Virus record (IMG/VR): IMGVR_UViG_3300032223_001832
Location: 1 to 64,000 of that record
Origin: a virus
DNA: 64,000 nucleotides
Strand: one strand, 5' to 3'
The position numbers and the translations under genes are program-made. The notes under the pieces are model-generated. The model was not told the origin of the DNA. It made no database searches and saw nothing but the letters and a program-made list of their open reading frames with translations. Positions 4,098 through 60,256 of the stretch are shown piece after piece; the first letter of the stretch is position 1; every line of letters starts with the position of its first letter.

Positions 4098-4505
4098 ATG
4101 GCACAAGGATACGCATACCCTGTAGGCGCGACTGCCACCAGCGGCACAGCTAAGACGGTCACCGTTTCTATCTCCTCTGCAAACACGGCTGTTACGGTGT
4201 TTACCGCTACTAAGAAAACATCTGTTAACTCAGTTCTGGTCACCAATAATGACTATGGCATCTTGCCTGTAAAGCTGTATATAAATAACTTAGAGATTAA
4301 CTCTGTTCGTGTTTTAAAGACAAAGTACGCAGTACTACCATTGACCGCAACTGACACCCGTATCGGTGACCCAGCTGACCCAACACATGACCGTAACAAG
4401 GTCAACACAGAGTTTATCCTCCAAACTGGAGATGTGCTAAAGGCTGTTTGCCCTATAGCAAACGCAGTAAACGTGACTGTGACTATGTCAGAAGGGGTTA
4501 AGTAA
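4098..4505 (+). CDS. Putative virion structural protein
   Basis: GGAGGA RBS. Same beta-sandwich type as the upstream gene ('LQTGDVLKA'). Confidence 0.6.
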   Translation: MAQGYAYPVGATATSGTAKTVTVSISSANTAVTVFTATKKTSVNSVLVTNNDYGILPVKLYINNLEINSVRVLKTKYAVLPLTATDTRIGDPADPTHDRNKVNTEFILQTGDVLKAVCPIANAVNVTVTMSEGVK

Positions 4506-5083
4506 TGATTGTAACTCAAACCTTCAACTTTCAGTTTCTTGTAGGCGGAGCTTACACAGTAGATGGGGTAAACAACGGCCCTATCACCTTGCAAAGAGGC
4601 CTTACTTATAAGTTTCAAATAGACGCCGTAGGTCACCCGCTTTACATTCAAACTACTGGAAACGGCTATGTCTCAGGTAACGTCTGGCAGTCTGGCGTTA
4701 GTGGGAACGGCACAGAGTCAGGCACTCTCACCTTTACTGTACCTGCGGACGCTCCAGATACCCTTTACTATCAGTGTCTTTACCACCCAATCATGTTTGG
4801 TCGCATAACGATTGTTGACTCCTCTGTGGGTCAAAGCTTTATGACGGTTGACCCTTATTCTGACACCCTTGAGGACTTAGTAGACAAAGTTTTTTATGGC
4901 GTTAAGCAGGATATCCAGACTGGCGCTGCTTCTATAGATACTATTGCTGGTGACGCAACAGTTCGTTTGCCTGACCAGTACTCTTTAACAGGAAACGATT
5001 ATATTAACTGGATGTGGAGCTATAATAGGTTCTTGTACAGTTATGACCCTACGACAGGACACCTTTTGATGGAGGTATTGTAA
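4505..5083 (+). CDS. Virion protein with cupredoxin-like domain
   Basis: 'GHPLYI' and 'YYQCLYHPIMFG' supply the H...C-x2-H-x2-M type-1 copper ligand pattern. Confidence 0.65.
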   Translation: MIVTQTFNFQFLVGGAYTVDGVNNGPITLQRGLTYKFQIDAVGHPLYIQTTGNGYVSGNVWQSGVSGNGTESGTLTFTVPADAPDTLYYQCLYHPIMFGRITIVDSSVGQSFMTVDPYSDTLEDLVDKVFYGVKQDIQTGAASIDTIAGDATVRLPDQYSLTGNDYINWMWSYNRFLYSYDPTTGHLLMEVL

Positions 5084-5084
5084 A

Positions 5085-8000
5085 ATGGCCCAGATTCTAG
5101 ACCTAGGCAAGATTCGCTTTAACTGGGCGGGTACCTATAGCTCAGGCACCTCTTACTCTTACAACGACCTTGTTAAGTACGGCCCTAACTTATACGCGTA
5201 TGTTGCTACTGCAGCTTCTGCTGGAACTGTGCCAACAGATACCTCAAAGTGGGTAAGTGTTACTCAGGGTGTTCAGTACCGCGGAGTTTATACCAACAGC
5301 ACTAAGTACTACGTAAACGATATTGTTTTTGACGGCACGAGCACATGGATTGTAGTAACAGAGCACACATCAGTAAGCAGCGGAGCAACAACTTCATCTA
5401 ACGCTTACGTGCAAATGATTGCCCTTGGACAGCCTGGCCTTCCAACACAAACAAACAACGTTAATAAAGTATTAACTACAGACGGAAACAATCCTTCATG
5501 GACTGGTTCTATCAAGATGAACAAGTCTTACTTTGGTGTTACTCAAGGCACAGGCGCTTACACATTTGAATCTAGCGCAGCACTTACAGACTCTGTTTCA
5601 GTGTTCACCGCTTCATCATCTAACTTTGTTCAGCTTCCTGTTGCAAACGTCTCTAACGGAGCTAACGCTTCTACAGACTTTATCGCCTACACAGCAGACG
5701 GAACTAACGACTCTGGCTGGGTTGATATGGGTATCACTAGCAACAACTTCTCAGCTGCTACCTTTGGTATTACTGGTCCACATGACGGTTATATCTTTAT
5801 GTCTGCGCCTCGTATTGCGCCTAAGAACGTTACAGCTGCAAAAGTTATCGGAAGCGTAGCAACTCTTACAACAGATACTACCCACGGTTACACAGTAGGT
5901 AACGTTGTTAAAATTGAAGGCGTAGCTGATGGCGGTGGAACAGGTCTTACAAACGGACTTGTAACCGTAACAGCGGTAACCTCAACTACATTCTCATATG
6001 CAACAACAGTGACACCGTTTGCTCAGGTTAACTTGTCTCCATTTGGAACAACATACAAGCCTAAGGGTAACGGTAACTTAGTATTCGCAACAGACCGTAC
6101 AGGTCTTTCAAACTCAATCGTTTTTGCTGCTGGTGGGTACGATTCTGGTACAACCCAGATGTCAATTACACCTAACCAGACCGTAAACGTTGCAATCACA
6201 ACAGCGTCTACTTCAGCTACTACAGGCGCTCTTACAGTATCTGGCGGTGCTGGTATCACTGGTGACTTGTGGACAAACGGAACTACACATATTGGTGGCG
6301 TGTTCTACGCAGGTAACAACACTGCTGGTGCATGGGCTGCCTCTAACCTTCTTACAGGTATCGCTGGTGTTGTCGAAGTTACATCTTCATCTAACAGTTA
6401 TGGACAAATTGCGTTCCACAACCGCGATGCTTCTTCATCCGTAGACTTTATTGCTTACCCAGATAACGGTAACGATAGCCACGGCTGGATTGACATGGGT
6501 ATGACTGGTTCTACATTCAACCAGTCTACATACGGAATCACAGGCCCTAACGACGGCTACCTCTTTGTAGATGCTCCAGTTGGAAGTACAGGTTACGGAA
6601 ACCTTGTACTTGCTACAGGTAGCCAAGGTACCCGTAACCGCATCGTATTCGCTGCTGGTGGTTTTGCTTCTGGCCATACTCAGATGGAAATTGTTCCTGA
6701 CACAGCAGTTAAGATTAACATTGCTACTGCTTCTACTTCCGCTACAACAGGTGCGCTTGTTGTTACAGGCGGTGTAGGTATCACAGGTGACGTTAACATC
6801 GCTGGTAACATCACATTCGGTGGAACAGGAACTAACGTTTCTACAGCTAACTTGGCTGTTAACGCTCCGCTTGTCTTTACTGGTTCTGGCTCAATTGTTT
6901 CTACAAATGACTTGGGTATTGTTACTGAAGGTAAGTACTCAGTAACTAACATCCCTGTTCAAACTGTAATTAACAAGGCGATTACAAACAACGTAGCAAC
7001 CTTGACAACCCTTCTCCCACACGCTTTTGTCACAGGAGATTCAGTTGTCGTAGCTAATATCGACGCCACATTTAACGGAACCTACACAGTTGCTTCAACA
7101 CCTTCTACAACAACATTTACATATGCTAAGACTAATGCTAACGTTGCGTCAACAGCTATCGGACCTGTTGCATACACAGTAACTGTTAAGGCACTTTCTT
7201 CTAACGTAGCAACCCTTACCACTTCAGTAGCCCACGCTCTTACAGTCGGTACTCAGGTATTCGTTGCTGGTGTTGATTCTACATTCAACGGTCAATGGGC
7301 AGTAACAGCAATTACCTCTAACACCTTTAGTTATGCGGTTACTGCGTCTAACGTATCAAGCACATCTGCTACAGGTACAGCCACTTACTACACATCAGTT
7401 TCAACGGCTTCTGTAGGAGCTGCTACACGTACTCGTTGGTCTGCTTGGACTAAGAAGGCTGCGGATGGTATTTGGAACCTTGTTACAAATATCAGCACAC
7501 TTCCAACCACATCTATTAACTATAACCAAAATACCTACCTAACAAGCAATCCAAACGCTACTCCAGATATTGCTTATGACCAGGTTAAGCTTGGTGGTAT
7601 TACCATTCAAGGTTCTGGCGCCAGCTACGGAGCACCTTACGGTTCTCTTGTCTTTACTGGAAATATCACATCTCCAGCATGGACTACAACTGGTCTCCGC
7701 CACATCGGTTCAAGCGCTTCAACCCTAACTGATACATCTTCTTCAGGTACAGTTGCAGCGGCTTACACCAACACCTTTGGTTCTAACGTAACTGTTGCAG
7801 CTTCTTCTGCAACAACATACACAGACTATGCAAACGCATACTTTGGCGGAACTACAGCTGGTACTAACGTAACCATCACTAACAACTGGTCAATCTTGAC
7901 TGCAGGTGCGGTAAAGGTCGGTGGAGCTCTCAGCGTAGTTGGTAACACAACTCTAACAGGAACTCTTCAGGCTAACAGCAACGTAGCTGTTGGAAGCAAC

Positions 8001-8654
8001 GTCTTCACAGTAGCCTCTGCTACAGGTAACACTGCTATCTCAGGTACTTTGACTGCAACAGGCCTTGCCACACTAAACGGTGGTATCGCAGGTGGTTCTT
8101 CAGCCAACATCACCATCAACACTAACAAGTTTACAGTTGATGCTACAACAGGTAACACTGCGGTTGCAGGTACTTTTGGAGCGTCAGGTAACACGACTGT
8201 TGGTGGAACTCTTAGCGTAACAGGCTTGGCATCCTTCCCAGGTGGTATCAGCGTAACTGGTACAGAGCGCTTTACTGGTCGCTTTGACGTTCAGGAAATG
8301 CGTGAAGACATCTCTAACGTTACTTTGTCTTCAGGTACGTTAACAGTTGACTACTCAGTAGCTAACGTTTACTACAGCGCAACCGCCCCTTCAGCGGCGT
8401 TTACAATCAACCTTACTAACGTCCCAACAGATAACGATAAAGCTATCTCTATCTCAGTTATTCAAGTTCAGGGTGCAACAGGTTACATCCCAAGCACATT
8501 CCAGATTGATGGCGCAAGCCAGACAATCAAGTGGGCTGGTGGCTCTGCTCCTTCACCTACCTCTACATCGGGTAAGCTTGATATCTTCAACTTCTCACTG
8601 CTACGTACAGGTAGCGCTTGGATTGTTCTCGGCTCAGCTAACCTGAACTACTAA
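5085..8654 (+). CDS. Long tail fibre / large virion fibre protein
   Basis: 1189 aa, T/G/S/A-rich. Duplicated 'DFIAY.D.G.D..GW.DMG' domain and repeated 'STSATTGAL.V.GG.GI.GD' fibre motifs. Confidence 0.8.
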   Translation: MAQILDLGKIRFNWAGTYSSGTSYSYNDLVKYGPNLYAYVATAASAGTVPTDTSKWVSVTQGVQYRGVYTNSTKYYVNDIVFDGTSTWIVVTEHTSVSSGATTSSNAYVQMIALGQPGLPTQTNNVNKVLTTDGNNPSWTGSIKMNKSYFGVTQGTGAYTFESSAALTDSVSVFTASSSNFVQLPVANVSNGANASTDFIAYTADGTNDSGWVDMGITSNNFSAATFGITGPHDGYIFMSAPRIAPKNVTAAKVIGSVATLTTDTTHGYTVGNVVKIEGVADGGGTGLTNGLVTVTAVTSTTFSYATTVTPFAQVNLSPFGTTYKPKGNGNLVFATDRTGLSNSIVFAAGGYDSGTTQMSITPNQTVNVAITTASTSATTGALTVSGGAGITGDLWTNGTTHIGGVFYAGNNTAGAWAASNLLTGIAGVVEVTSSSNSYGQIAFHNRDASSSVDFIAYPDNGNDSHGWIDMGMTGSTFNQSTYGITGPNDGYLFVDAPVGSTGYGNLVLATGSQGTRNRIVFAAGGFASGHTQMEIVPDTAVKINIATASTSATTGALVVTGGVGITGDVNIAGNITFGGTGTNVSTANLAVNAPLVFTGSGSIVSTNDLGIVTEGKYSVTNIPVQTVINKAITNNVATLTTLLPHAFVTGDSVVVANIDATFNGTYTVASTPSTTTFTYAKTNANVASTAIGPVAYTVTVKALSSNVATLTTSVAHALTVGTQVFVAGVDSTFNGQWAVTAITSNTFSYAVTASNVSSTSATGTATYYTSVSTASVGAATRTRWSAWTKKAADGIWNLVTNISTLPTTSINYNQNTYLTSNPNATPDIAYDQVKLGGITIQGSGASYGAPYGSLVFTGNITSPAWTTTGLRHIGSSASTLTDTSSSGTVAAAYTNTFGSNVTVAASSATTYTDYANAYFGGTTAGTNVTITNNWSILTAGAVKVGGALSVVGNTTLTGTLQANSNVAVGSNVFTVASATGNTAISGTLTATGLATLNGGIAGGSSANITINTNKFTVDATTGNTAVAGTFGASGNTTVGGTLSVTGLASFPGGISVTGTERFTGRFDVQEMREDISNVTLSSGTLTVDYSVANVYYSATAPSAAFTINLTNVPTDNDKAISISVIQVQGATGYIPSTFQIDGASQTIKWAGGSAPSPTSTSGKLDIFNFSLLRTGSAWIVLGSANLNY

Positions 8655-9644: not shown

Positions 9645-10601
9645 ATGCCATATTTTAACTTAACAAGCCACGGTGGCGGCACAGGTATTATCGGCGGACG
9701 TGCTCCAGGACTTAAGCCTTTTCTTACACGACAGATTATTGCTCGTGGTTACGTTGCTGGTGGTTACGCTAACAGCAGCCCTTGGACTGACGTAAGCTCA
9801 ATCAATGCCTCTACAGACGTGGCAGGTAGCCATGGAAACCTTTTAGGTTCAGCTGGCGGATATATTGGCGGAGGTTGCAGCCTTACTACAGGTTACGCTT
9901 TTGGTTCGGGCGGTATGGGTAACTACTCAACAGCTTCTCGTTTTAACATGGTAACAAAGACTGGTCAGTCTGATATGTCCATGCCTTACACAGTAGGTGA
10001 CTGCGAATCTATTCAGGACAATGCCCCAGGCACAGGTGGCGCTAGAGGCCTTTGGATTAACGGTAACTCCTCAAGCGGCGGCATGAAGCTTACAGTCGCT
10101 ACTGATACTTATTCTGGTTTTAGCACTTCTCTTTCTCAAGCAGGAACAGGCGCAAGCTCCCACATGACTGAGCTCTGGGGTATTTGGTGGGACGATAACG
10201 CCACTAACCGTAAGTTTGTATTTGCTACTGAAACTGAATCAGCCAACGGTGGTGCAGCAGGTTTTTATGGTCAACAAAAAGGAATCTCAACCAAACTTGG
10301 CAAAGGTTACGCTGGTAACGAAGGTAGCTATAATGCAGGCAACAACCTTCGTATTTGGAACTACGTAACTGAATCTCTAAGCGGAACTGTTGGTAAGCCT
10401 ATCGGTAACTCTGGTGAAGAGAACTTTGACATGGGACAAGACCACCAATATATGCTCGGAATGTACAACGGCGCACAAAATAACCGCGCTTGGCGCTTAA
10501 ACTATTCAACAGATTCAGGATACGAACTTGGAACTTCTGGGCAACCATCCGCTCCTGGTTCAGGACGCTCTTCAGGTGGATGTTCTTGGTGCTCTGTTTA
10601 A
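9645..10601 (+). CDS. Beta-propeller-like virion protein, paralog 2
   Basis: Shares 'EENFDMGQDH.YMLGMY', 'QNNRAWR.NY.TDSG' and 'GRSSG.C.W' with 8673..9644. Confidence 0.6.
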   Translation: MPYFNLTSHGGGTGIIGGRAPGLKPFLTRQIIARGYVAGGYANSSPWTDVSSINASTDVAGSHGNLLGSAGGYIGGGCSLTTGYAFGSGGMGNYSTASRFNMVTKTGQSDMSMPYTVGDCESIQDNAPGTGGARGLWINGNSSSGGMKLTVATDTYSGFSTSLSQAGTGASSHMTELWGIWWDDNATNRKFVFATETESANGGAAGFYGQQKGISTKLGKGYAGNEGSYNAGNNLRIWNYVTESLSGTVGKPIGNSGEENFDMGQDHQYMLGMYNGAQNNRAWRLNYSTDSGYELGTSGQPSAPGSGRSSGGCSWCSV

Positions 10602-10610
10602 TGCTAAACT
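10602..10610 (+). promoter_or_regulatory. Extended -10 promoter for the accessory cassette
   Basis: TG-C-TAAACT just after the stop codon at 10601. The same TGnTAnnnT pattern occurs at 32040, 45769, 49025 and 53992. Confidence 0.45.
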
Positions 10611-10638
10611 AACCCCCTTAACTTATTAGGAGATTAAT

Positions 10639-11430
10639 ATGGACGATAGACTACTACCAGCTCAAATCGATACTAAACGATATGACCTCACAGGTAAGCA
10701 AAAAGAACTTGCTGAGTTTGCTATGGGATACGAACACGCGCAGTCTGAGTTTAAGACTAAGCACTTTGTCGGTAATGCCCAAATTACTCCTTACCAAAAG
10801 TACAAGCAGTTCTTGTTAGAGCTTCGCACCCGTGAAGAGTCCATTGAATTGATGCTTATTCAACTTGAGATTAAGAAAGCTGAAATAGCTGTAGAGTTGG
10901 AAAAGGGCGAGCAGTCTAACCTTCCTGCTTTTAAGAACCTTTGCGCAATGAACGCTCGGGATAAAGAGCGTGAATCTCTACTAGTTGAGCGCCGTTTACA
11001 ACAGGCAATCTTTGAGCGAGACCAGTACGTTCGACTTTTAGAAGAGATGTATACAACAGGTGAAGCCTATCTCCCTGACGGCATGGACCTAAAAGACGCA
11101 ATTACTGACGTTTATTTGGACGCTCAACTTGAACGTGACCATTGGATTACTCGCCTTAGCAAGCAGGCGGCATTGGACCTTTTGGCCTACGGTCAAATTG
11201 GCACAGGAAACATGGAAGCTATCACCATGCTTTCAGACATTGACGCTGCCGAGGTTATTAACGTAGCTATTGGTTACTCTAACCGTCTTAAGAATGAAAT
11301 GGTAAATGTAGAGCAAAAAGTATTAGAAGAGATTAAAGACACTGGGTTAAAGTCGCTCGATATCCACGCTACTAGAAGTAACGCTTTGAACAAGTCTCTT
11401 AACGTTAGTGAGAAAAAGGCACTTAACTAA
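10639..11430 (+). CDS. Coiled-coil hypothetical protein
   Basis: 263 aa, helical, E/L/K-rich; AGGAGA RBS. Confidence 0.7.
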   Translation: MDDRLLPAQIDTKRYDLTGKQKELAEFAMGYEHAQSEFKTKHFVGNAQITPYQKYKQFLLELRTREESIELMLIQLEIKKAEIAVELEKGEQSNLPAFKNLCAMNARDKERESLLVERRLQQAIFERDQYVRLLEEMYTTGEAYLPDGMDLKDAITDVYLDAQLERDHWITRLSKQAALDLLAYGQIGTGNMEAITMLSDIDAAEVINVAIGYSNRLKNEMVNVEQKVLEEIKDTGLKSLDIHATRSNALNKSLNVSEKKALN

Positions 11431-11819
11431 TGTACTACGCTGTATTTTTAGATGATTACTTAAAAGTAAAAGATTACTTTGAGTGGCAAGAACTAGGCAG
11501 AGCTTACCTATCTGTTATCTTAAAGTACGATAACGTTCCTGATATAGACCACGTTGAACTTACCGAAGACGAAGCCTACGCTTTTATTTTCTCTGAGATT
11601 CCAGAAGGGTACTCAAAGATTACTGTTCGAGAGAACACACATATTTGGGATAGACTACAAGATAAGCCTCTAGAAAAGAGCCCACAGCTTGATAGAATGG
11701 GTAACGTTATGGAGGGCGTATTTAAATATAAATACACTGTTACGGAAGAAGATTTGGAGAATGCGGCGTCTTTAAACAAAAAGATTGCACAATGGATACC
11801 TTATGGAGAAACCAACTAG
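11430..11819 (+). CDS. Hypothetical protein
   Basis: TAATG-coupled, 129 aa. Confidence 0.65.
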   Translation: MYYAVFLDDYLKVKDYFEWQELGRAYLSVILKYDNVPDIDHVELTEDEAYAFIFSEIPEGYSKITVRENTHIWDRLQDKPLEKSPQLDRMGNVMEGVFKYKYTVTEEDLENAASLNKKIAQWIPYGETN

Positions 11820-12516
11820 TATTCAATTCATCCTTAATGATGAAGACCTGCCTGATATTTATGAGGCACCTAAACCAGCTAAATCTCAGTTCCCTGATTG
11901 GTATAAAGACGCGTCTCCTACCATAAACCGTGAAGAAGTAAAAATACTTCCAAACGGTAAACGCAACGGTACGTATAAAAAGTGCATGCCTTTTATGGAT
12001 GCTATGGCGTCTGGTTATATTGTCACCTTGCCTTGCGACGTGCTTGTAGTAAAAGACCCAATGGGTAACCAAGCATTTCAATGGACGGTTGACGGCAACG
12101 TTGTCGCTACCCATAGTAAGTCAGAGCACCCAGGTTTTCCCATACCTGATGGGTACAACCAGACAGTATTTACTTGGCTCGGTCACCACATTATAAAAAC
12201 CCCTAAAGGAACTAGTTGCCTGTTTACTCACCCACTAAACCGCAATGACCTACCTTTTAGAGTTGTTAGTGGTGTGGTGGACACTGATGCCTACCTTGCC
12301 CCTGTGGATTCACCATTTTTAATTGAAAAGAGCTTCACTGGTATACTTCCTCAAGGAACACCTATCTGCCAAATAATTCCTTTTAGACGAGAAAGCTGGG
12401 TTTCAGCTGTAGCCCATCTAACCAAGAAGGAACTAAACAACTGGATGAACAGGTACATGAGCAAGCTGGTCTCAGCTTATCGGGCTTCTGTTTGGTCTAA
12501 AAAGGAGTACAACTAA
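11803..12516 (+). CDS. DUF6065/dUTPase-fold-like protein, paralog 1
   Basis: 'KKCMPFMDAMASGY', 'SGVVDTD' (resembles dUTPase motif III), 'GTPICQIIPFRRE'. Confidence 0.55.
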   Translation: MEKPTSIQFILNDEDLPDIYEAPKPAKSQFPDWYKDASPTINREEVKILPNGKRNGTYKKCMPFMDAMASGYIVTLPCDVLVVKDPMGNQAFQWTVDGNVVATHSKSEHPGFPIPDGYNQTVFTWLGHHIIKTPKGTSCLFTHPLNRNDLPFRVVSGVVDTDAYLAPVDSPFLIEKSFTGILPQGTPICQIIPFRRESWVSAVAHLTKKELNNWMNRYMSKLVSAYRASVWSKKEYN

Positions 12517-14162
12517 TGTTTAGCGTACCGTTAAACCCAAAGCTTAACCCAGAGCAGATGGAAGAGTTTATTAAGTTCCTGTCTGATTACAAGGACTACA
12601 TCTACGACTTCTACTTTACCTGCCGCATCCCACCGTTTACTCAAGATGCTATGGGAGACGTGTTTACTCAAGGTGACGACGACTGGACTTATCTTATTGA
12701 GCTAGCCCTATACATTCAGAATGAGACTGGAGTTACCGCTTCAGCAGTCTTTAACAATACTGAAGTTCGTCCGTCTCAAGATAACCTTGACTTGTTTATA
12801 TTAAACTTTCGTCAACTTTATAAAGCGGGCATCCGCTCAGTCACTATCCCACACACTCACTGGATGGCCACTGGTCAGATTAAAACCGCTTTCCCTGAGC
12901 TATTCGTAAAGAACACCATCCTTCGTAATGTAAGCGAGCCTCGTGATATTGAGAAGCTAGCCCAGGCTGGCTTTGACTACATCAACTTGGACCGCGACCT
13001 TATGCGCGACCATGACAAGTTATTGCGCTTTAAGAAAGCTAAGGAAAAGTACGGAGTAAAGATTTCTCTTCTTGCTAATGAAGGCTGCCTTGGTGGCTGC
13101 ATCATGATGGACGAACACTATCAATTTAACAACACTCGTACCGATGGACCTCAGTATTTTACTGACCCTATCAGCCGCGTCTCTTGTATGAAGTGGGATA
13201 GACAAGATTCAGCCGTAGCCCTAAAGACCGCGAACTTTCCACCCTGGCGTGAAGACTGGGAGGAGTTCCTAAACGACTTTGGTATTGACGTCATTAAGAT
13301 GCACGGCCGTGAGTCGACTACCCGCTTGCGCGAAACCATGGACATCATCAAGAAGTACGCTGCTGGGGAAGAGATTCTCTATGAGCACTTTAATGATTTC
13401 ATTGAAGAGAAGAACATGGTGGATAAGCCCATCAATATCTGGCGCAATAAAATCAAAAACTGCAAGTTTGATTGCTGGGACTGTGGGTACTGCGACAAGA
13501 TTATCCAAGCCAAGTACGGTAATAACATTGACGCAAAAGTCGACTTTGTCGTACAAGCTTTGGTGGACGCGGTTAACAAACATGTTCACATTCATCACAT
13601 CCCTGGGTTGACCAGTCAGCGCGTTCAGTCATTGCTTAACGTATTGGCGTCCAAGTCGACCACTTACCTAGAGGTTGGTTCATACCTAGGGGCTACAAGC
13701 TCATCCGCGCTAATGGATAATACCCTTAACGCTTACTTTGTAGACCTATGGGAAGAAGACATCCAACCAGCCGAAGCTAACATTGAGCTCCCGCCTAACA
13801 GTCGAGCTCAGTTTGAAAAGAACATTGCCCCTTATGTAGGCGACAGTGCAATCCACGTAATACAGGAAGATATGCTGGCGGTAGACACCTCAGCTATCCA
13901 GAATGTAGACCTGTTCTTCTATGACGGTCCGCACGATTACGCAAGCGTCTATAAAGCAATCCTCCACTATAAAGATACGTTTGCTAAACAGACAGTCCTA
14001 GTAATGGATGATGCTAACTGGACAGACACTGTGCTTGCCACAGATGCTGCCCTAAAAGATGCGGGATTAAAACCCGTGTACACTAAGAAAGTGCTAAACG
14101 CCGTTGAATCAGCCAAAGACTGGTGGAATGGTTTATATATTGTAGTAGTTAACAAGGAGTAA
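12516..14162 (+). CDS. Peptidase-U32-family Fe-S protein fused to a class I SAM methyltransferase
   Basis: N-terminal part: 'INLDRDLMRD', 'LLANEGCLGGC...EH...C', 'IKMHGRE', 'CKFDCWDCGYC'. C-terminal part: 'YLEVGSYLG', 'VDLW', 'FFYDGPH', 'VMDDANW' (Methyltransf_24-like). Confidence 0.75.
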   Translation: MFSVPLNPKLNPEQMEEFIKFLSDYKDYIYDFYFTCRIPPFTQDAMGDVFTQGDDDWTYLIELALYIQNETGVTASAVFNNTEVRPSQDNLDLFILNFRQLYKAGIRSVTIPHTHWMATGQIKTAFPELFVKNTILRNVSEPRDIEKLAQAGFDYINLDRDLMRDHDKLLRFKKAKEKYGVKISLLANEGCLGGCIMMDEHYQFNNTRTDGPQYFTDPISRVSCMKWDRQDSAVALKTANFPPWREDWEEFLNDFGIDVIKMHGRESTTRLRETMDIIKKYAAGEEILYEHFNDFIEEKNMVDKPINIWRNKIKNCKFDCWDCGYCDKIIQAKYGNNIDAKVDFVVQALVDAVNKHVHIHHIPGLTSQRVQSLLNVLASKSTTYLEVGSYLGATSSSALMDNTLNAYFVDLWEEDIQPAEANIELPPNSRAQFEKNIAPYVGDSAIHVIQEDMLAVDTSAIQNVDLFFYDGPHDYASVYKAILHYKDTFAKQTVLVMDDANWTDTVLATDAALKDAGLKPVYTKKVLNAVESAKDWWNGLYIVVVNKE

Positions 14163-14164
14163 TA

Positions 14165-15079
14165 ATGCCGTCTTTATTGGTTCTTTTTTCAGAGTGGTAC
14201 TACATCTTGATGCTTGGCACAGTGTTGGTGCTTTCGTTTTACGCACGTAAGTATGATGTGTTTCAGCCGTTGTACGCTGGAGTATCTAAGGTATTTAAGT
14301 CTAAGAGGGCGGTTATTGCCGTAACATCTGCTATCTCTGGCGTACTACCTATCAATGGTCGAGTAGTTGTATCAGCGGGTATTCTAAACACAATAGCCCC
14401 TTCCGACGCTGAAAAACGTAAAAAGTACGCAATCATTGATTACTTAGCCACACACCACTTCTACTTCTGGTCACCTTTGGAGCAAACAGTTATTGTTCCT
14501 ATGGCCGCCCTTCACATTTCATATTGGACTTTCCTAGGTCGTACTTGGGCCATTTTGGCTACTGCTATAACCTGCGCCCTTTGGTACATTTTTGGTGTTC
14601 TTAAAGAAGACGATGTAGAAATCAACTTCCGCACAGAACGTGTCCGTCAAGATATGAATGCTCGTGAGGAGTTCCGCAAGGGAGTAAAGACATTAGCACT
14701 AGTTACAGGCCTTTTGATGGCAGGTAACTTTGTAGGCTACCACCATGCTGCGTTTGAGCACCTGTTTAATAATGCTCAAAAGACTAGCCTTTTGATTGTT
14801 GTTCTTCTTGCTTCTTTTGCTATTAGCTGGTTGCTCGGCAGTAGTGAGAAGTTCTCAGGTCTTATTGGAATTTCTGCAGCAGCTTTTGGTCTTCAGTACC
14901 TACCGTTGTTGTTTGCCGTTAACTGGGGTGGGTACTTCCTGTCCCCACTTCATAAGTGCATGTTGCTAGGTCGTCAAATCTTTGGCGCAAGCCTTAAGGA
15001 TTATTACAAGGTTCTTGTGGGAGTAGTTGCTATGGTCATTATGGTTGCTATTGTCCACACTTACACAACAGGTCTTTAA
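14165..15079 (+). CDS. Multi-pass membrane protein, transporter-like (IT superfamily/DUF401-like)
   Basis: Many hydrophobic segments. 'SGVLPINGR', 'FWSPLEQ' and 'GYFLSPLHKC' resemble a two-repeat ion-transporter architecture. Confidence 0.6.
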   Translation: MPSLLVLFSEWYYILMLGTVLVLSFYARKYDVFQPLYAGVSKVFKSKRAVIAVTSAISGVLPINGRVVVSAGILNTIAPSDAEKRKKYAIIDYLATHHFYFWSPLEQTVIVPMAALHISYWTFLGRTWAILATAITCALWYIFGVLKEDDVEINFRTERVRQDMNAREEFRKGVKTLALVTGLLMAGNFVGYHHAAFEHLFNNAQKTSLLIVVLLASFAISWLLGSSEKFSGLIGISAAAFGLQYLPLLFAVNWGGYFLSPLHKCMLLGRQIFGASLKDYYKVLVGVVAMVIMVAIVHTYTTGL

Positions 15080-15774
15080 TGAAGAAGATTGAATTTATCC
15101 CCAACTCAGAGCATACTGGTCAAGCTTTAAATCCCCCTGCTCCGAGTAGGGGGTTTATTCCTCAGTGGTATAAAGACTCTACTCGCTACACAACAGGTAA
15201 TGACCTTACCTTTAGTAACGATGGGGAACCAAATAAAAACTACAAACTCTGTGTACCTTTTCTAGACATTATGACTTCGGGGTACATCATCGAACTTCCT
15301 TACGATGTCCACGTAGAGAAAATTGGTGACCGTATTGCCTTTAACTGGAACGATGCACCAGGCTTAGTATCAGCTAGACGAAACCTTAAAGGCATGCCTC
15401 GTCCAGCAGGTTGTTTAGACCAAGCTTATGCTTGGACTTTCTTTTGGGGAGTTAAAACACCCGTAGGTTACAGCGCGATTATCACGCACCCATTTAACAG
15501 ACATGATTTACCATTTATAACAACTAGCGGAATTGTTGAATCCGATAATTTTAGCCAGGGCGGGGAGATACCGTTCTTCCTTAAAGCTGACTTTGAAGGC
15601 ATGATTCCTGCTGGAACGCCTATTGCTCAGGTAATTCCTTTTAAACGAGAAGACTGGGTATCTGAAGCAAAAGAGTATGATGACACGTTCTTTCAGCAAC
15701 AGGTTTACGCGCTCCATAGAAACATTACTGGGGCGTACAAGCGTCTATTTTGGCGCAAGAAGAACTACGACTAA
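15079..15774 (+). CDS. DUF6065/dUTPase-fold-like protein, paralog 2
   Basis: 'KLCVPFLDIMTSGY', 'THPFNRHDLPF', 'IPAGTPIAQVIPFKRE'; paralog of 11803..12516. Confidence 0.55.
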   Translation: MKKIEFIPNSEHTGQALNPPAPSRGFIPQWYKDSTRYTTGNDLTFSNDGEPNKNYKLCVPFLDIMTSGYIIELPYDVHVEKIGDRIAFNWNDAPGLVSARRNLKGMPRPAGCLDQAYAWTFFWGVKTPVGYSAIITHPFNRHDLPFITTSGIVESDNFSQGGEIPFFLKADFEGMIPAGTPIAQVIPFKREDWVSEAKEYDDTFFQQQVYALHRNITGAYKRLFWRKKNYD

Positions 15775-15812
15775 ACCCTGCGCTTTAATCCCGTATGCAA
15801 GATAATGGGGTA

Positions 15813-16628: not shown

Positions 16629-16778
16629 ATGCCTTTTAAGTCTCAACAGCAAGAAAAGTGGATGTGGGCAACCCATCCTCAGATGGCCCAGCAATGGGAA
16701 AAGCACACACCCAAGGGCAAGACGTTGCCCAAGAAAGTAGGTAAGCATGGCGGTAAAAAAGGCAGCAAAAAAGCCTAA
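16629..16778 (+). CDS. Small basic protein
   Basis: MPFKSQQQEKWMWATHPQMAQQWEKHTPKGK..., Lys-rich. Confidence 0.65.
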   Translation: MPFKSQQQEKWMWATHPQMAQQWEKHTPKGKTLPKKVGKHGGKKGSKKA

Positions 16779-16926
16779 GCTTGGTTCTGGAAAGCGCTTC
16801 GAAGAAATTGAAGAGAAAGCTAAGAAGTCTGGAGCTAAAAACCCTGGAGCTGTAGCTGCAGCTGCAGGTATAAAGAAGTACGGCGTCAAGAAAATGGAAA
16901 AAATGGCACAGAAGGGAAAGAAATAA
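16747..16926 (+). CDS. Small basic protein
   Basis: MAVKKAAKKPKLGSGKRFEEIEEKAKKSGAKNPGAVAAAAGIKKYG... (59 aa, not in the ORF track). Confidence 0.7.
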   Translation: MAVKKAAKKPKLGSGKRFEEIEEKAKKSGAKNPGAVAAAAGIKKYGVKKMEKMAQKGKK

Positions 16927-17117
16927 TGTGCGCTACATGTGGTTGCATGAAGAAGGCCGATAAGAAGCAGGACGCAAAGCTTATGAAGGGTATGACCCCT
17001 AAGCAAAAGGCGGCTTTTGAAAAGGCTGACAAGAAGATGGATAAGAAGAAGCCATCTCGCAAGAAGGACGAAGAGCTAGATAAGGCTCTTGCCAAAAAGG
17101 TCAAGAAAAAGAAGTAA
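16926..17117 (+). CDS. Small basic protein with N-terminal CxxCxC
   Basis: MCATCGC followed by a Lys/Asp-rich tail; TAATG-coupled. Confidence 0.7.
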   Translation: MCATCGCMKKADKKQDAKLMKGMTPKQKAAFEKADKKMDKKKPSRKKDEELDKALAKKVKKKK

Positions 17118-17121
17118 GCTT

Positions 17122-17145
17122 AGGCCCCCGAAAGGGGGCCTTTTG
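17122..17145 (+). terminator. Intrinsic terminator
   Basis: AGGCCCCC-GAAA-GGGGGCCT followed by TTT. Confidence 0.8.
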
Positions 17146-18353: not shown

Positions 18354-19877
18354 ATGGCAACATTCTCACGCCCTGGGGTATACGTTCAAGAGACGTTGAA
18401 CCCTATTGCACCATTGTCAGGCCCTAATGCTGACTCAATCGGTGCATTCATGGGTGCTTCAGACAAGGGTCCAGAAGCACCTACTTACATCTCATCTTGG
18501 AGCCAGTACACATCTATCTACGGTGGATGGAACTCAGTAGCATCTAACGTTCTTCCTCTTGCTGTTTATATGTTCTTTACTAACGGTGGAAGCGGCGCAT
18601 ATATCAACCGCGTTACAGGTTCAGGAGCAGCTGCTGCTACTCGTACCCTTAATGACACTGCTGGTACACCTCACGCTACTTTAGTTGTTAGCGCAAGCAG
18701 CAAAGGCTCATGGGGAACCAACATCAACGTAAGCGTAACCGCTTCAACTATTACTGGTTACTTTAACCTTACTGTCTACTACGGTGGAACCACTTCTGCA
18801 AACATTGTAGAGCGTTGGACAGATATCACAATGGATACTACAAACGCTCGCTATGCAGTATCCACAATTAACGCAGGCTCAACTTACATTACCGTAGCAG
18901 ATGGTGGCTCAACAGCTTCAGGCGCTACCCGTAACCCTGCAGTCGCAGCTAACACAACTCTTACAGGTTCAGGTCTAGACGGCGGTTCAATTACAAACTC
19001 TACATTTATCTCTGACCTAAATACTGATGGAACATCAGCATGGGACGGAATTAAACAAACACTTATTCTTAACATCCCAGGATACACAGACGCAGCAACT
19101 GTAAACGCAGCTATCGCATACGCTGAATACCGCACAGATGTGTTTGTTGTAGTTGACGGCCTTAATGACACAGTAACTGCTCAGCTTGCTGCAGCAGCTA
19201 CCTACACAGTTTCTTCTCGTGCAGCTGTCTACTACCCACAAATTACTATCCCAGACCCAACCGCACAAGTCGGTTCATCTTCAGGTCTTACAAAGACAAT
19301 TGGAGCTGGCGGAGCAGTAGTCGGTTTGTATGCAGCAACTGACGCATCACGTGGTGTGTTCAAGGCACCTGCAGGTTTGCAAGCAAAGATTGCTGGAGCA
19401 GTAAGCGTTCCATCTCTTACAAATACAGACCTTGATAACCTAAACACAGCGTCTGCCCCAGTCAACGCTATTAAGTACACACCTGGCGCAGGAATTGTTG
19501 TTATGGGTGCACGTACTCTTAAGCAAGGCTATGTGGACCGTTATGTTCCAGTACGCCGCACACTTATTTACTTGGAAAAGTCTCTTACTGACCTAACTCA
19601 GTTTGCAGTCTTTGAGCCAAATGATGCTCGTCTATGGCGCCGCCTAAACGCTTCAGTAAGCAGTTTCTTAACTGGCTTCTGGAACCAAGGTGGTCTTGCG
19701 GGAGCTTCACCTTCTCAAGCATTCTTTGTGAAGGTTGACTCTGAAAACAACCCACAAGCAAGCATCGATAACGGATATGTAACAATTGAAGTTGGTGTTG
19801 CTCTACAGCGTCCAGCTGAATATGTTGTAATTAAAATTGGTCAGTTTGACGGTGGAACCACCGTTACTGTAGCGTAA
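18354..19877 (+). CDS. Tail sheath protein
   Basis: 'RPGVYVQE', 'RGVFKAPAG', 'GARTL', 'YVPVRR', 'VFEPND', 'RPAEYVVI'. Confidence 0.95.
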   Translation: MATFSRPGVYVQETLNPIAPLSGPNADSIGAFMGASDKGPEAPTYISSWSQYTSIYGGWNSVASNVLPLAVYMFFTNGGSGAYINRVTGSGAAAATRTLNDTAGTPHATLVVSASSKGSWGTNINVSVTASTITGYFNLTVYYGGTTSANIVERWTDITMDTTNARYAVSTINAGSTYITVADGGSTASGATRNPAVAANTTLTGSGLDGGSITNSTFISDLNTDGTSAWDGIKQTLILNIPGYTDAATVNAAIAYAEYRTDVFVVVDGLNDTVTAQLAAAATYTVSSRAAVYYPQITIPDPTAQVGSSSGLTKTIGAGGAVVGLYAATDASRGVFKAPAGLQAKIAGAVSVPSLTNTDLDNLNTASAPVNAIKYTPGAGIVVMGARTLKQGYVDRYVPVRRTLIYLEKSLTDLTQFAVFEPNDARLWRRLNASVSSFLTGFWNQGGLAGASPSQAFFVKVDSENNPQASIDNGYVTIEVGVALQRPAEYVVIKIGQFDGGTTVTVA

Positions 19878-19891
19878 AGGAGAAATAACCA

Positions 19892-20512
19892 ATGTCAATC
19901 CCAAATACCGATTTCGGTTCTACCATTGCGACCGACCCGTTACGCTCGTTTCGGTTCTACGCAGAGTTCTCGCTTCCTAACGAAAAGACTACCCCTACAG
20001 GTGCAAAGGGCGCTCTTAGCGCCAAGATTGTAGATGGATGGGTAGGAGGCTTTGCAAGTATTGATGGTCTTAACATCAATACTCAAGCAATCCCTTATCG
20101 TGAAGGTGGCTTCAATACTACTGTCCACCAGATTCCTGGTATGACAACTTTCCAACCTGTTACGTTCTCTCGTGGCGTTATTGCTGGAAATGACCAAGCT
20201 ATGACCTGGATGCGCGGTATGTTTGCTGCAGCAGCTGGTAATGGTATTTCTTCTTCAGCAGCTAACAGCTTCCGCGTAAACATCACTGTTTACGTACAGA
20301 ACCACCCAGACGCTGGAACATCTAACACTGATAAAATGGCGTTTAAGATTCACAATGCGTGGATTACAGGCCTTAACTACTCAACGCTAGATGCTACTAA
20401 CGGAGCTATTTTGTTCGAAACAATGACCCTCACACACGAAGGTCTTTCAGTGTTCTTCACAAGCGCTGATGGAACAAAGTCCGCTGACGGAACAGCAATT
20501 TCTTCCCTCTAA
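19892..20512 (+). CDS. Tail tube protein (T4 gp19-like)
   Basis: 'DPLRSFRF', 'YREGG', 'PGMTTFQPVTFSRG', 'NAW', 'ETMTLTHEG'. Confidence 0.9.
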   Translation: MSIPNTDFGSTIATDPLRSFRFYAEFSLPNEKTTPTGAKGALSAKIVDGWVGGFASIDGLNINTQAIPYREGGFNTTVHQIPGMTTFQPVTFSRGVIAGNDQAMTWMRGMFAAAAGNGISSSAANSFRVNITVYVQNHPDAGTSNTDKMAFKIHNAWITGLNYSTLDATNGAILFETMTLTHEGLSVFFTSADGTKSADGTAISSL

Positions 20513-37076: not shown

Positions 37077-37147
37077 AAGAGATTCTTGGTTATTTAATGG
37101 TTATTGTTGGCACTTGGACCGCTATTAACTTGTTGAGGAAGTTTTAA
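37073..37147 (+). CDS. 24-aa membrane peptide
   Basis: MKEILGYLMVIVGTWTAINLLRKF; ATGA/TAATG-coupled on both sides. Confidence 0.5.
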   Translation: MKEILGYLMVIVGTWTAINLLRKF

Positions 37148-37695
37148 TGATTATTGGTTTAACTGGGTATGCTCAGTCTGGCAAAGACACAGTAGCGAAC
37201 ATTCTTGTTGAAAACTACGGTTTTACGCGTGTGGCTTTTGCTGACAAGATTCGTGAACTTCTGTACGAAATGAACCCCAAGATAATTGTCGGATACGATA
37301 ACCACACTACAGTCCAACTTATGGTTGACCATGATGGCTGGGATGTTGCTAAGCAGAACCCCGATGTTAGGGCCATGCTTCAAAATATTGGCGTAGGCGC
37401 TCGCAAAGTGTTTGGAGAAGAGTTTTGGATTGCCAAGGCTTTACAAGGCCGTGATTGGTCTATCCCTACCGTGATTACCGATGTTCGGTTTGAAAACGAA
37501 GCTCGTTTACTAAAGAAGTGGAGCCCTGAAGATACCCAACTATGGCGTATTAAACGTTTGGGCATAGGGGCGGTTAATTCTCACGTATCTGAAAAAGAGA
37601 TGGACGGCTACCCTGTTGACCAAATCTTTGTTAACAACGGAACTATTGCTGACCTAGAGGTTTTAATTAAAATAAGGATGAATGGCTTAAAGTGA
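37147..37695 (+). CDS. Deoxynucleoside monophosphate kinase
   Basis: 'IIGLTGYAQSGKDT', 'ITDVRFENE', 'HVSE'. Confidence 0.9.
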   Translation: MIIGLTGYAQSGKDTVANILVENYGFTRVAFADKIRELLYEMNPKIIVGYDNHTTVQLMVDHDGWDVAKQNPDVRAMLQNIGVGARKVFGEEFWIAKALQGRDWSIPTVITDVRFENEARLLKKWSPEDTQLWRIKRLGIGAVNSHVSEKEMDGYPVDQIFVNNGTIADLEVLIKIRMNGLK

Positions 37696-58222: not shown

Positions 58223-60256
58223 ATGTCATTGTCGTTCCGCTTAGGTGAGGACTTCCTAGCAGGATACAGAGGGAAGAAAGTGCCTTGGGGTTACCAAGAT
58301 GCGGCTGGCAATTCGGTGGGAGAAATTACTTTTCTACGAACATACTCTCGACTTAAAGAAGATGGAACCAAGGAGACTTGGACAGATGTATGCGAGCGAG
58401 TCATCAATGGTATGTACTCCTTGCAGAAAGACCACGCGAAGTTAAACCGTCTTCCATGGTCAGACGCTAAGGCTCAAGCTTCAGCCAAAGAAGCTTTTGA
58501 CCGTCTGTGGAATCTCAAGTGGACTCCGCCAGGACGCGGGCTTTGGGTTATGGGAACCCCTCTCGTAAATGAACAGCGCAATTCAGCCGCCCTTCAAAAC
58601 TGTGCTTTTGTCTCTACGAACTCTATGACTAAGAACGACCCCGCTAAGCCTTTTGCTTTCCTAATGGAAGCCTCAATGCTTGGTGTGGGAGTTGGTTTTG
58701 ACGACAAGGGCGCAGATAAAGACTTCACTATCTACCCTTGCGAAACAGGAGAAAATTATGTCATCCCCGACACCCGAGAAGGCTGGGTCGAATCAGTTGC
58801 CGCCCTCATCAATGCCTACCTTAAGCCAGATACGAAGTGCCCTGTATTTGACTACTCAGAAATCAGACCTGCGGGTACTCCGATTAAAACCTTTGGAGGC
58901 ACAGCCGCGGGACACGAACCGCTAGAGCGTCTTCATAACCATATCCGACGAATCTTTGGTGCCCGAGCTGGTGAGAAGCTGACTCGTGTAGATATTGCTG
59001 ATATTGGTAATCTAATAGGAGTTTGCGTAGTTAGCGGGAATGTACGCCGCAGCGCTGAGCTTCTTATGGGCAGAATCGACGACGCAGACTTTCTTAATTT
59101 AAAGAATGCCTCTGCCTTCCCTGACCGTAACTCCTACGATGCCAAGGCTCCTGGATGGGCTTGGATGTCTAATAACTCTGTTGAAGTCTCTGTTGGACAA
59201 GACCTCTCAGCAATCGTAGATGGTATCGCCCGCAACGGTGAGCCTGGGGTTATTTGGATGGATGTGTCTCGTAAGTACGGTCGCTTGGCTGACCCAGAGA
59301 ACAACAAGGACTGGCGCGTTATGGGTTACAACCCTTGCGCTGAACAATCTCTTGAATCTTTTGAGTGCTGTACTTTAGTTGAAACTTACCTTAATCGTCA
59401 TGAGAACTTAGAAGACTTTAAAAGAACTTTGAAGTTTGCTTATCTCTACGCTAAGACTGTTACTCTTTTGCCTACCCACTGGGAAGAAACAAACGCAATC
59501 ATGCAGCGTAACCGCCGTATCGGAACTTCAATCTCTGGTGTAGCAAACTTTGCTGATAACAAAGGTCTCCCTGTCCTTCGTACTTGGATGGATGAGGGAT
59601 ACAAGGTTATTCAGGGATACGACAAGGGCTACTCTGAGTGGCTTGGTATCCGCGAATCAATCAAAACCACAACGGTAAAGCCTTCGGGAACTGTCTCTAT
59701 CCTTGCAGGTGAGTCCCCAGGAGTCCATTGGCCTGTTGGCGGTAAGCACTTCCTTCGTGCTATTAGATTTGCTAACTCTGACCCTATGTTGCCTCTCTTT
59801 AAGATGGCGCAGTATCGCGTAGAGCCAGCGTCGGAATCTCCAGATACAACTTCTGTTGTTTTCTTCCCTGTGGAATCTAATGCGGTACGTTCTGAGAAAG
59901 AAGTATCAATCTATGAGAAAATGGCACTCGCGGCTCAAGCCCAACGCTATTGGTCTGATAACTCTGTCTCTGTAACTATCTCTTTTGACCCTGAAACTGA
60001 GGCTAACGCTATCGACAAGGTTCTCCATATGTACGACGGGCAACTTAAAACTGTCTCTTTCCTACCTAGCGGAAATACCGTTTATCCACAAATGCCTTAC
60101 ACGCAGATTACTGCCGAAGAATACGAGGAGTATCGCATGACTCTCTTTCCTATTGACTTCGCTGGTGTGTACGCAGGTATGGCCGCCGATGCTGTTGGCG
60201 AAGCTTACTGTACGACTGACGCGTGTGAAGTTAAGTTAATTAAAGATAATATATAA
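58223..60256 (+). CDS. nrdJ: Class II (adenosylcobalamin-dependent) ribonucleotide reductase
   Basis: 'PPGRGLW', 'LQNC', 'GNVRRSA', 'NPCAEQ', 'TTVKPSGT', C-terminal 'YCTTDAC'. Confidence 0.95.
   Translation: MSLSFRLGEDFLAGYRGKKVPWGYQDAAGNSVGEITFLRTYSRLKEDGTKETWTDVCERVINGMYSLQKDHAKLNRLPWSDAKAQASAKEAFDRLWNLKWTPPGRGLWVMGTPLVNEQRNSAALQNCAFVSTNSMTKNDPAKPFAFLMEASMLGVGVGFDDKGADKDFTIYPCETGENYVIPDTREGWVESVAALINAYLKPDTKCPVFDYSEIRPAGTPIKTFGGTAAGHEPLERLHNHIRRIFGARAGEKLTRVDIADIGNLIGVCVVSGNVRRSAELLMGRIDDADFLNLKNASAFPDRNSYDAKAPGWAWMSNNSVEVSVGQDLSAIVDGIARNGEPGVIWMDVSRKYGRLADPENNKDWRVMGYNPCAEQSLESFECCTLVETYLNRHENLEDFKRTLKFAYLYAKTVTLLPTHWEETNAIMQRNRRIGTSISGVANFADNKGLPVLRTWMDEGYKVIQGYDKGYSEWLGIRESIKTTTVKPSGTVSILAGESPGVHWPVGGKHFLRAIRFANSDPMLPLFKMAQYRVEPASESPDTTSVVFFPVESNAVRSEKEVSIYEKMALAAQAQRYWSDNSVSVTISFDPETEANAIDKVLHMYDGQLKTVSFLPSGNTVYPQMPYTQITAEEYEEYRMTLFPIDFAGVYAGMAADAVGEAYCTTDACEVKLIKDNI

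Follow-up and report, generated by a model that had tools for sequence, protein, structure and literature searches.

Candidate viral enzyme module with a divergent U32-like domain fused to a methyltransferase

The U32 proteins are, to our knowledge, an emerging class of O2-independent hydroxylases with only three known functions, all of them cellular. They hold a 4Fe-4S cluster through conserved cysteines and are tied to prephenate-dependent hydroxylation (PMC6747719, PMC10990095; every paper is cited here for the portions of its text that were available). Of the three U32 activities characterised so far, two place a hydroxyl group on C5 of an RNA pyrimidine, and 5-hydroxyuridine (ho5U) is subsequently methylated by TrmR (PMC13602947). 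Phages reuse CmoA, an enzyme of the tRNA xo5U pathway, for DNA modification (PMC12783734). The subject of this study is a stretch of phage DNA of 64,000 nt (the window), the first part of the IMG/VR contig IMGVR_UViG_3300032223_001832 (72,418 b, CheckV completeness 76), and in it a cassette of six genes, one of which encodes a U32-like domain fused to a methyltransferase. An initial annotation of the window had described RlhA, TrhP, UbiU/V and TrmR in terms that agree with the literature (PMC6747719, PMC10990095, PMC13602947). The region is read here, tentatively, as a conserved and almost exclusively viral enzyme module rather than as a set of virion parts. It probably hydroxylates its substrate and then O-methylates it, as analogy with UbiU/V, TrhP and RlhA suggests, and the favoured, if still doubtful, target is C5 of a pyrimidine in a nucleotide or nucleic acid.

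The window is part of the genome of a contractile-tailed phage. Six co-directional open reading frames (ORFs) occupy positions 10639-15774, and their junctions overlap or are 0-2 nt apart, which confirms the tight coupling that the initial annotation had described:

10639..11430, plus strand: 263-residue protein, a coiled coil according to the initial annotation; phrog_1409, E 8.2e-35
11430..11819, plus strand: small ORF of 129 residues between the coiled-coil gene and the enzyme genes
11785..12516, plus strand: DUF6065-like paralog A, 243 residues; phrog_7084, E 2.1e-46
12516..14162, plus strand: U32-like/methyltransferase fusion, 548 residues; phrog_1458 over the full length, E 1.1e-166
12516..13535, plus strand: N-terminal domain of the fusion, divergent U32-like triosephosphate isomerase (TIM) barrel, residues 1 to ~335
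13593..14162, plus strand: C-terminal domain of the fusion, class I S-adenosylmethionine (SAM) methyltransferase (Methyltransf_24)
14165..15079, plus strand: DUF401 multi-pass membrane protein, 304 residues; phrog_14035, E 7.1e-69
15079..15774, plus strand: DUF6065-like paralog B, 231 residues; phrog_7084, E 2e-40

The actual start codon of paralog A may be the ATG at 11803. All the ORFs except that of 129 residues match PHROG families without an assigned function, indicating that the genes are real and recurrent. The 263-residue protein has no match in Pfam or the PDB, and the 129-residue ORF has no family match in Pfam, PHROG or NCBIfam.

The N-terminal domain of the fusion protein is genuinely related to the U32 family but divergent, and it lies outside the present Pfam model. 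An AlphaFold2 model calculated from an alignment of 50 sequences is an alternating beta/alpha barrel (predicted local distance difference test score, pLDDT, 92.7; predicted template modelling score 0.91), the U32-type TIM barrel that had been expected. The best Foldseek match of the model is 5d88, the U32 protein Mk0906 (E 5.9e-7), and methylenetetrahydrofolate reductases rank behind it. In a VIA structure search 5d88 reached Z 16.7 with a root-mean-square deviation of 3.1 and 224 of 247 residues aligned, and the next chain followed at Z 13.0. We know of no other solved U32 structure. Searches of the domain against Pfam, NCBIfam and the PDB (phmmer and profile search) gave nothing useful, so that the link to U32 comes from structure and profile-profile comparison. 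In the latter (hhalign), the domain matched four U32 proteins of E. coli (66%, E 5.5e-5, with residues 45-157 of UbiU aligned) and eight canonical U32 domains (89.3%, E 2.1e-6).

A set of six cellular proteins bridges the phage family and the canonical one. They were collected as weak matches in a PF01136 scan of 61 genomes from one phylum; five are paralogs in a genome of 1.5 Mb (G011), which score 19.7-28.7 bits against a cut-off of 22.4, and the sixth is a weak match in another genome. Two of the six pass the cut-off alone and two more pass it together with neighbouring same-frame stretches. The phage domain aligned with the bridging proteins over 322 columns that include both of its cysteine motifs (hhalign, 99.7%, E 1.6e-25), and the bridging proteins aligned with canonical U32 over 242 columns, with the first cysteine and a K-x-x-G-R motif in register (96.3%, E 1.9e-9). 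BLASTP comparison of the bridging proteins with the fusion protein directly gave E values from 2e-11 to 6e-9.

Residues 1-345 found 307 relatives at E ≤ 1e-3 among 1.84 billion representatives, 71 of them at E ≤ 1e-30, and many are stand-alone proteins of ~330-380 residues. Across 50 aligned, diverse homologs, seven cysteines (C191, C195, C224, C316, C320, C323 and C326) never vary, which upholds the proposed conservation of the cysteine ligands; D31, N80, E189, E200, H201, K261, G264 and R265 are near-invariant in the same alignment. Only the first of the phage cysteines aligns with the first cluster ligand of U32, through the bridging family. K261, G264 and R265 align through the same family, and also in a relaxed, low-confidence hhalign comparison, with the motif K-I-E-G-R, which is present in three of the four aligned E. 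coli U32 proteins. This motif, late in the barrel, is one that we take to define the U32 family.

The five paralogs of genome G011 are 45-57% identical among themselves and lie at four sites (L120-L123). At three of the four sites the U32-like paralog adjoins a conserved partner of 376-439 residues without a Pfam family. PAS histidine kinases lie nearby, as do proteins of 180-188 residues (in two of these three, three or four segments are hydrophobic), and one of the four sites carries a molybdenum hydroxylase. These loci look like an undescribed multi-gene system.

The C-terminal domain matches Methyltransf_24 (PF13578) at residues 385-499 of the fusion (E 2.2e-10, 41.8 bits versus a cut-off of 26.3), and so do 20 of 25 aligned homologs; one of the 25 has a weak match to TylF (E 0.013). 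The nearest Atlas language-model clusters are viral Methyltransf_24 proteins with 81-100% PF13578, some from giant viruses, and of the neighbouring clusters one is 46% Methyltransf_3 and one 20% TylF. The full-length family profile found two matches at E ≤ 1 among all PDB sequences. The better one is YrrM/TrmR of B. subtilis (5zw3), with a weak E of 0.06, and in this alignment the near-invariant residues D470 and D498/D499 are opposite the D and D-N positions of YrrM, which are presumably metal ligands. Three homologs among the matches listed carry the JGI label "predicted O-methyltransferase YrrM". The comparisons make an O-methyltransferase subtype plausible. In four loci, a separate ORF of ~190-215 residues that lies 1.5-3 kb downstream of the module matches the fusion profile, and these ORFs are presumed to encode stand-alone methyltransferases:

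L010, 12680-13261: separate ORF matching the fusion profile
L011, 11045-11644: separate ORF matching the fusion profile
L015, 8287-8868: separate ORF matching the fusion profile
L042, 11228-11875: separate ORF matching the fusion profile

The membrane protein encoded directly after the fusion matches DUF401 (PF04165; E 7.1e-11, 42.5 bits versus a cut-off of 24), with its best stretch at profile positions 56-187 of 393 only, and TIGR00529 (E 8.7e-11). The homologs from phages S-H25 and RP31 span profile positions 63-385 and 67-384. Together with at least five strongly hydrophobic segments of 19 residues, the family assignment bears out the earlier description as a multi-pass transporter-like protein, for which transport itself is predicted. 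Cellular DUF401 proteins were found in two of 201 genomes of one phylum, neither with PF01136, a sample too small for a conclusion on pairing with U32.

The DUF6065-like paralogs are 35.8% identical over 232 residues (E 4e-51), and both match phrog_7084 end to end. Paralog A scores just below the cut-off of Pfam DUF6065 (PF19541; E 5.8e-6, 26.4 versus 26.6 bits), paralog B has no match to it at E ≤ 0.1, and only 12-21% of the members of the nearest Atlas clusters carry PF19541. An AlphaFold2 model of paralog B, calculated from 28 relatives taken from viral loci, has a pLDDT of 82.6 and a helical C-terminus. Its top 22 matches in VIA are dUTPases, dCTP deaminases and three herpesviral entries (Z 9.5-5.4, then 4.7 and 3.2), and the top Foldseek matches belong to the same dUTPase and dCTP deaminase families. 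We take the three herpesviral entries to be dUTPase-derived proteins. Judged by this model, the DUF6065-like family has a dUTPase fold; the initial annotation had assigned this fold to both proteins, and it is borne out for B by the model and for A as the paralog of B. Comparison with E. coli Dut (hhalign, 30.6%, E 5e-4) placed the segments G-I-x-D/E-x-D and G-T-P-I-A-Q opposite motifs III and IV, with motifs I-V as we assume them to be defined. The acidic position of motif III is D in 25 of the 28 relatives, E in two and N in one, and the Gln of motif IV is present in 24. The Pfam dUTPase family (PF00692) is not among the matches of the DUF6065-like proteins at E ≤ 0.1, and inspection by eye revealed no glycine-rich C-terminal segment of the kind that presumably constitutes motif V. 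Relatives occur in 50 phage records, which by organism name belong to 49 haloarchaeal tailed viruses and one cyanophage; the haloarchaeal proteins are ~28-37% identical to the window copy. In both records that were opened, Halorubrum tailed phage 5 and cyanophage S-RIM4, the DUF6065-like gene adjoins ribonucleotide reductase genes.

The arrangement of the cassette recurs in other viruses. The ORFs of the best 80 of 297 related IMG/VR loci, many of which are closely related to each other, were scanned with profiles from the window proteins, and counts are given over eligible loci. The coiled-coil gene lies upstream of the fusion in 69/69 loci, the small-ORF family lies between these two genes in 68/72, and one or more phrog_1417 paralogs are found further upstream in all 56 loci that extend 6 kb or more in that direction. 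DUF401 is present within 4 kb downstream of the fusion in 49/62 loci and directly adjacent to it in 44/72. A DUF6065-like gene lies within 5 kb downstream in 30/59, and 57 of 59 loci have DUF401, a DUF6065-like gene or both downstream; the window's arrangement with a DUF6065 copy immediately before the fusion was seen in 1/75. Between one and three phrog_1417 paralogs precede the module, depending on the locus (L003-L082).

Among isolated phages, 126 records match the fusion, 121 of them over its full length, and all but three of the 126 are marine cyanomyoviruses. Identity to the window protein is 43-46% in the full-length entries among the matches listed, and every one of the isolate homologs is annotated as hypothetical. 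Hundreds of metagenomic phage contigs also carry relatives. Phages S-RIM2 and S-H25 keep the order phrog_1417, coiled-coil gene, fusion, and in S-H25 DUF401 follows one gene further on. In the Ralstonia jumbo phage RP31, the U32-like gene stands alone, without a methyltransferase; a homolog of the coiled-coil gene (E 5.7e-11) comes immediately before it, and an overlapping DUF401 gene comes after it. This trio indicates that the core of the module consists of the coiled-coil, U32-like and DUF401 genes, to which the methyltransferase and DUF6065 genes are frequent additions. The related viral loci and the core trio of RP31 thus support the co-occurrence of the genes in other genomes. A dCTP deaminase gene of RP31 was rejected as a linked gene, being 3.7 kb from the module and a single case. 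A pattern-based scan of one genome per species, of limited reach, found three short contigs of metagenome-assembled genomes only, and a related-loci scan with a stand-alone homolog (P0138) gave no matches. The U32-like family is nearly confined to viruses.

A distant U32-like branch of ~430 residues without a methyltransferase occurs in phage contigs of 58-168 kb (L095, L099 and L100), where it comes after three to five consecutive paralogous genes for ~220 residues; in L095 it lies between two genes that resemble the long fibre protein of the window. In marine cyanomyoviruses, a gene for 165-166 residues overlaps the end of the fusion (Syn19, L091 7692-8189; S-RIM2, L001 10701-11201). The two orthologs are 55% identical and are annotated "DNA endonuclease V" in Syn19 and "tail fiber protein" in S-RIM2. 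The Syn19 "denV" was rejected as a link of the module to DNA, because its S-RIM2 ortholog is labelled differently and neither label is supported. The S-RIM2 copy has a sub-threshold match to 2OG-Fe(II) oxygenases (E 3.6e-4), and marine cyanomyoviruses may carry an oxygenase-like gene of the O2-dependent type beside one of the O2-independent type.

In the window, the cassette is positioned between tail-fibre and baseplate genes upstream and the sheath and tube genes downstream:

4505-5083: baseplate-wedge/tail-fibre connector; phrog_677
5085-8654: fibre-like protein, 1189 residues
8673..9644, plus strand: phrog_1417 paralog 1, a putative beta-propeller protein in the initial annotation, 47% identical to the next gene; phrog_1417, E 4.2e-35
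9645..10601, plus strand: phrog_1417 paralog 2, likewise a putative beta-propeller protein, without a PDB sequence match at E ≤ 1; phrog_1417, E 1.6e-37
10602..10610, plus strand: TGnTAnnnT string TGCTAAACT, earlier taken for a promoter
18354-19877: sheath; phrog_23
19892-20512: tube

It had been proposed that the cassette interrupts the structural operon. Its place among structural genes is confirmed, and the interruption is doubtful because the phrog_1417 paralogs, present upstream in every eligible locus, may belong to the unit. The further proposals of a TGnTAnnnT promoter for the cassette and of a different promoter type after it, at 15784, are unsupported. The string is present, but the pattern is rarer than chance (118 occurrences in the window versus 174 ± 13 in shuffles), and a sigma-70 scan showed no promoter-like site in either of the gaps that flank the cassette (37 and 20 nt). 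No terminator was found in a scan at the cassette end (15774); the only strong one nearby is at 17122-17141, a hairpin of eight pairs, seven of them G-C. With promoter-like sites and an end terminator missing and the string pattern rarer than in shuffles, a separate transcription unit is unsupported. Directly before the terminator, at 16747-17117, are two short, strongly basic ORFs rich in Lys and Ala (59 and 63 residues), which could encode DNA-binding or internal virion proteins. The sheath is nearest to those of Streptomyces phages, with 38-39% identity. Going by this similarity, the phage may infect a freshwater actinobacterium and not a cyanobacterium, though the isolate relatives of the module are cyanophages. 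The window also encodes a T4-type deoxynucleoside monophosphate kinase (37147-37695) and a class II ribonucleotide reductase (58223-60256), as well as a family A polymerase, RecA, DnaB and a primase.

From the fold, homology, conserved residues, gene fusion and synteny described above, we infer the metal binding, the two reactions, the transporter role and the substrate as follows. The U32-like domain would bind one or more iron-sulfur clusters through its seven invariant cysteines and would, like its cellular counterparts, perform an O2-independent hydroxylation. The fused SAM methyltransferase would O-methylate the new hydroxyl, and the DUF401 protein would probably bring in a needed small molecule, either a carboxylate such as the oxygen donor prephenate or a metal. 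C5 of a pyrimidine in a nucleotide, in phage DNA or in tRNA would be converted to the 5-hydroxy and then to the 5-methoxy form, with the dUTPase-fold DUF6065 proteins as putative nucleotide-binding or nucleotide-processing helpers. A pyrimidine is favoured because pyrimidine C5 is the target of two of the three known U32 activities, because TrmR is the nearest solved methyltransferase, though weakly so, because the partners have a dUTPase fold and relatives that adjoin ribonucleotide reductase genes, and because phages already redirect the xo5U enzyme CmoA to DNA (PMC12783734). A more specific proposal places the modification, first 5-hydroxy- and then 5-methoxy-pyrimidine, in phage DNA and has an O2-independent U32 hydroxylase of the prephenate type act either on nucleotides or on replicated DNA; it is quite improbable.

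Several results weigh against the pyrimidine-modifying enzyme proposed here, some of which concern the barrel itself. PF01136 did not match the fusion protein at E ≤ 0.1 or any part of the whole 72-kb record at E ≤ 10, and the same profile matched 10 of 14 control genomes; none of 35 scanned relatives of the N-terminal domain matched any Pfam family at E ≤ 0.01. Direct hhalign comparisons with the four and the eight canonical U32 proteins covered the same 112 columns only. The cysteine pattern of the phage family is CX3CX28C plus CX3CX2CX2C, not the published four-cysteine motif CX6CX15CX3/4C or the CX6CX16CX38C of UbiU (PMC6747719). The U32 assignment of the initial annotation therefore stands as to the TIM barrel and the profile homology and fails as to the PF01136 match and the canonical cysteine motif, and the two failures place the domain in a divergent U32-like subfamily. 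They also favour a barrel, such as a Zn-binding hydrolase or a scaffold, in which U32 redox chemistry was lost or never present, so that the fusion would be a methyltransferase with a targeting domain. CX3CX2CX2C could bind Zn, and many glycoside-hydrolase TIM barrels reach Z 11-12.6 in VIA. However, the U32 structure scores 3.7 Z units over all other barrels, the profile links to U32 reach 89-99.7%, the bridging family puts the first cysteine in line with the first ligand of the U32 cluster, and the seven invariant cysteines with the near-invariant E200 and H201 suggest redox metal sites rather than a scaffold; a barrel without redox chemistry is therefore very unlikely. As to the methyltransferase, none of the 25 homologs matches Methyltransf_3 (PF01596) at E ≤ 0.1, and the matches that point to the O-methyltransferase subtype are weak.

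The choice of a pyrimidine as the substrate also meets contrary evidence. Nothing in the data ties the enzyme directly to nucleic acid, no tRNA genes were found in the window, and a DUF6065-like gene is absent downstream in 29/59 loci, and tblastn detected none in the two loci of marine isolates that were searched. The DUF401 gene, as the most constant partner of the enzyme, points to a small-molecule substrate, and the PAS kinases, small membrane proteins and single molybdenum hydroxylase beside the U32-like relatives of G011 look like small-molecule metabolism. The same chemistry could thus act on a small aromatic or lipid-soluble metabolite, as UbiU/V and UbiG do in ubiquinone synthesis, where hydroxylation is followed by O-methylation (PMC6747719); DUF401 would import, export or present the molecule, and the phage would remodel a host metabolite or quinone. 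RP31 agrees with this, as its DUF401 gene comes directly after the stand-alone U32-like gene in a module without a methyltransferase and its product resembles the CitMHS carboxylate carriers (E 2.7e-6, below the cut-off of that family). Such a role is nevertheless somewhat unlikely: the hosts (cyanobacteria, Ralstonia and probably Actinobacteria) differ in their quinones, so that no single lipid substrate fits, the dUTPase-fold partners would be left without a role, and a Pfam search of the six genes revealed no lipid-binding protein like UbiT/SCP2. The position of the module, always among tail-fibre genes in a long operon of the late type, fits a virion-related or late post-replicative role better than chemistry on the deoxynucleoside triphosphate pool. 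The module might therefore mature or decorate the virion or its receptor-binding apparatus, for instance by producing a methylated tail-fibre sugar or side chain, with a TylF-like sugar O-methyltransferase and the Fe-S barrel acting on the same glycan or protein. The tail-fibre and baseplate genes around the cassette, the fibre-like flanks in the distant lineage L095 and the constant phrog_1417 companions agree with this, as do the viral and partly giant-virus Methyltransf_24 clusters and the TylF matches. It is unlikely all the same, because scans of the six genes and of neighbouring genes showed no glycosyltransferase, a multi-pass membrane protein and dUTPase-fold proteins have no evident part in fibre maturation, and the available portions of PMC6747719, PMC10990095 and PMC13602947 name no U32 protein that acts on a protein or glycan.

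No paper on the phage U32-like protein, the module or DUF6065 was found in a literature search for which most subscription journals and supplements were outside reach, and the 12 U32 subfamilies of Kimura et al. may already include the phage branch among their unnamed groups. The module presents a divergent, almost virus-confined branch of U32-like proteins that is fused to a methyltransferase and tied to a carrier-like membrane protein. Five paralogs in a single small genome belong to the bridging cellular family, which widens the U32 family beyond the current Pfam model. If the DNA proposal is true, the product would be a base absent from the list of known phage bases, made by the first virus-encoded U32 hydroxylase and present in more than 100 isolated marine cyanomyoviruses and many freshwater phages. 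A new nucleic-acid base would add to the anti-restriction chemistry of phages, and a small-molecule product would represent a new kind of auxiliary metabolism in phages of oceans and lakes. Because isolates that carry the module exist, among them Syn19, S-RIM2, S-ShM2 and P-RSM1, its function is directly testable.

Of the described systems, TrhP (YegQ; YrrN/YrrO in B. subtilis) and TrmR (YrrM), which convert U34 of tRNA to ho5U and then to 5-methoxyuridine (mo5U), also pair a U32-type protein with a SAM methyltransferase, which in the case of TrmR acts on the new hydroxyl (PMC13602947). The phage methyltransferase has its best, though weak, PDB profile match in TrmR, but belongs to Methyltransf_24 and not to Methyltransf_3. 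The phage version is viral and fused in a single chain of 548 residues, its U32 part fails PF01136 and has another cysteine spacing and an extra four-cysteine motif, and coiled-coil, dUTPase-fold and DUF401 membrane proteins accompany the fusion. UbiU-UbiV, which with UbiT and UbiG serve the O2-independent hydroxylation of ubiquinone through a cysteine-bound 4Fe-4S cluster, have in common with the module the U32 fold, an accessory non-catalytic partner and the order of hydroxylation and O-methylation, which is proposed for the phage (PMC6747719, PMC10990095). In contrast to UbiU-UbiV, the cassette has no second U32 paralog or SCP2 protein, its methyltransferase is fused, and its membrane partner is DUF401.

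The closest solved structure to the phage domain, the U32 peptidase Mk0906 of Methanopyrus kandleri (5d88), is 10-11% identical to it in sequence and lacks the ~70 additional C-terminal residues that bear CX3CX2CX2C in the phage. The DUF6065-like protein shares the predicted fold of the trimeric dUTPases and dCTP deaminases, and its motif III/IV region aligns with that of E. coli Dut, but it is ~80 residues longer than the dUTPases, with a helical C-terminus. The CmoA-CmoX system of Synechococcus phage S-B43, which makes 5-carboxymethylcytosine in DNA, consists of a SAM carboxylase and a C5-methyltransferase homolog and, unlike the phage module, contains no U32 protein and has been shown experimentally; the likeness lies in the reuse by a phage of a prephenate-dependent enzyme from the tRNA xo5U pathway (PMC12783734).

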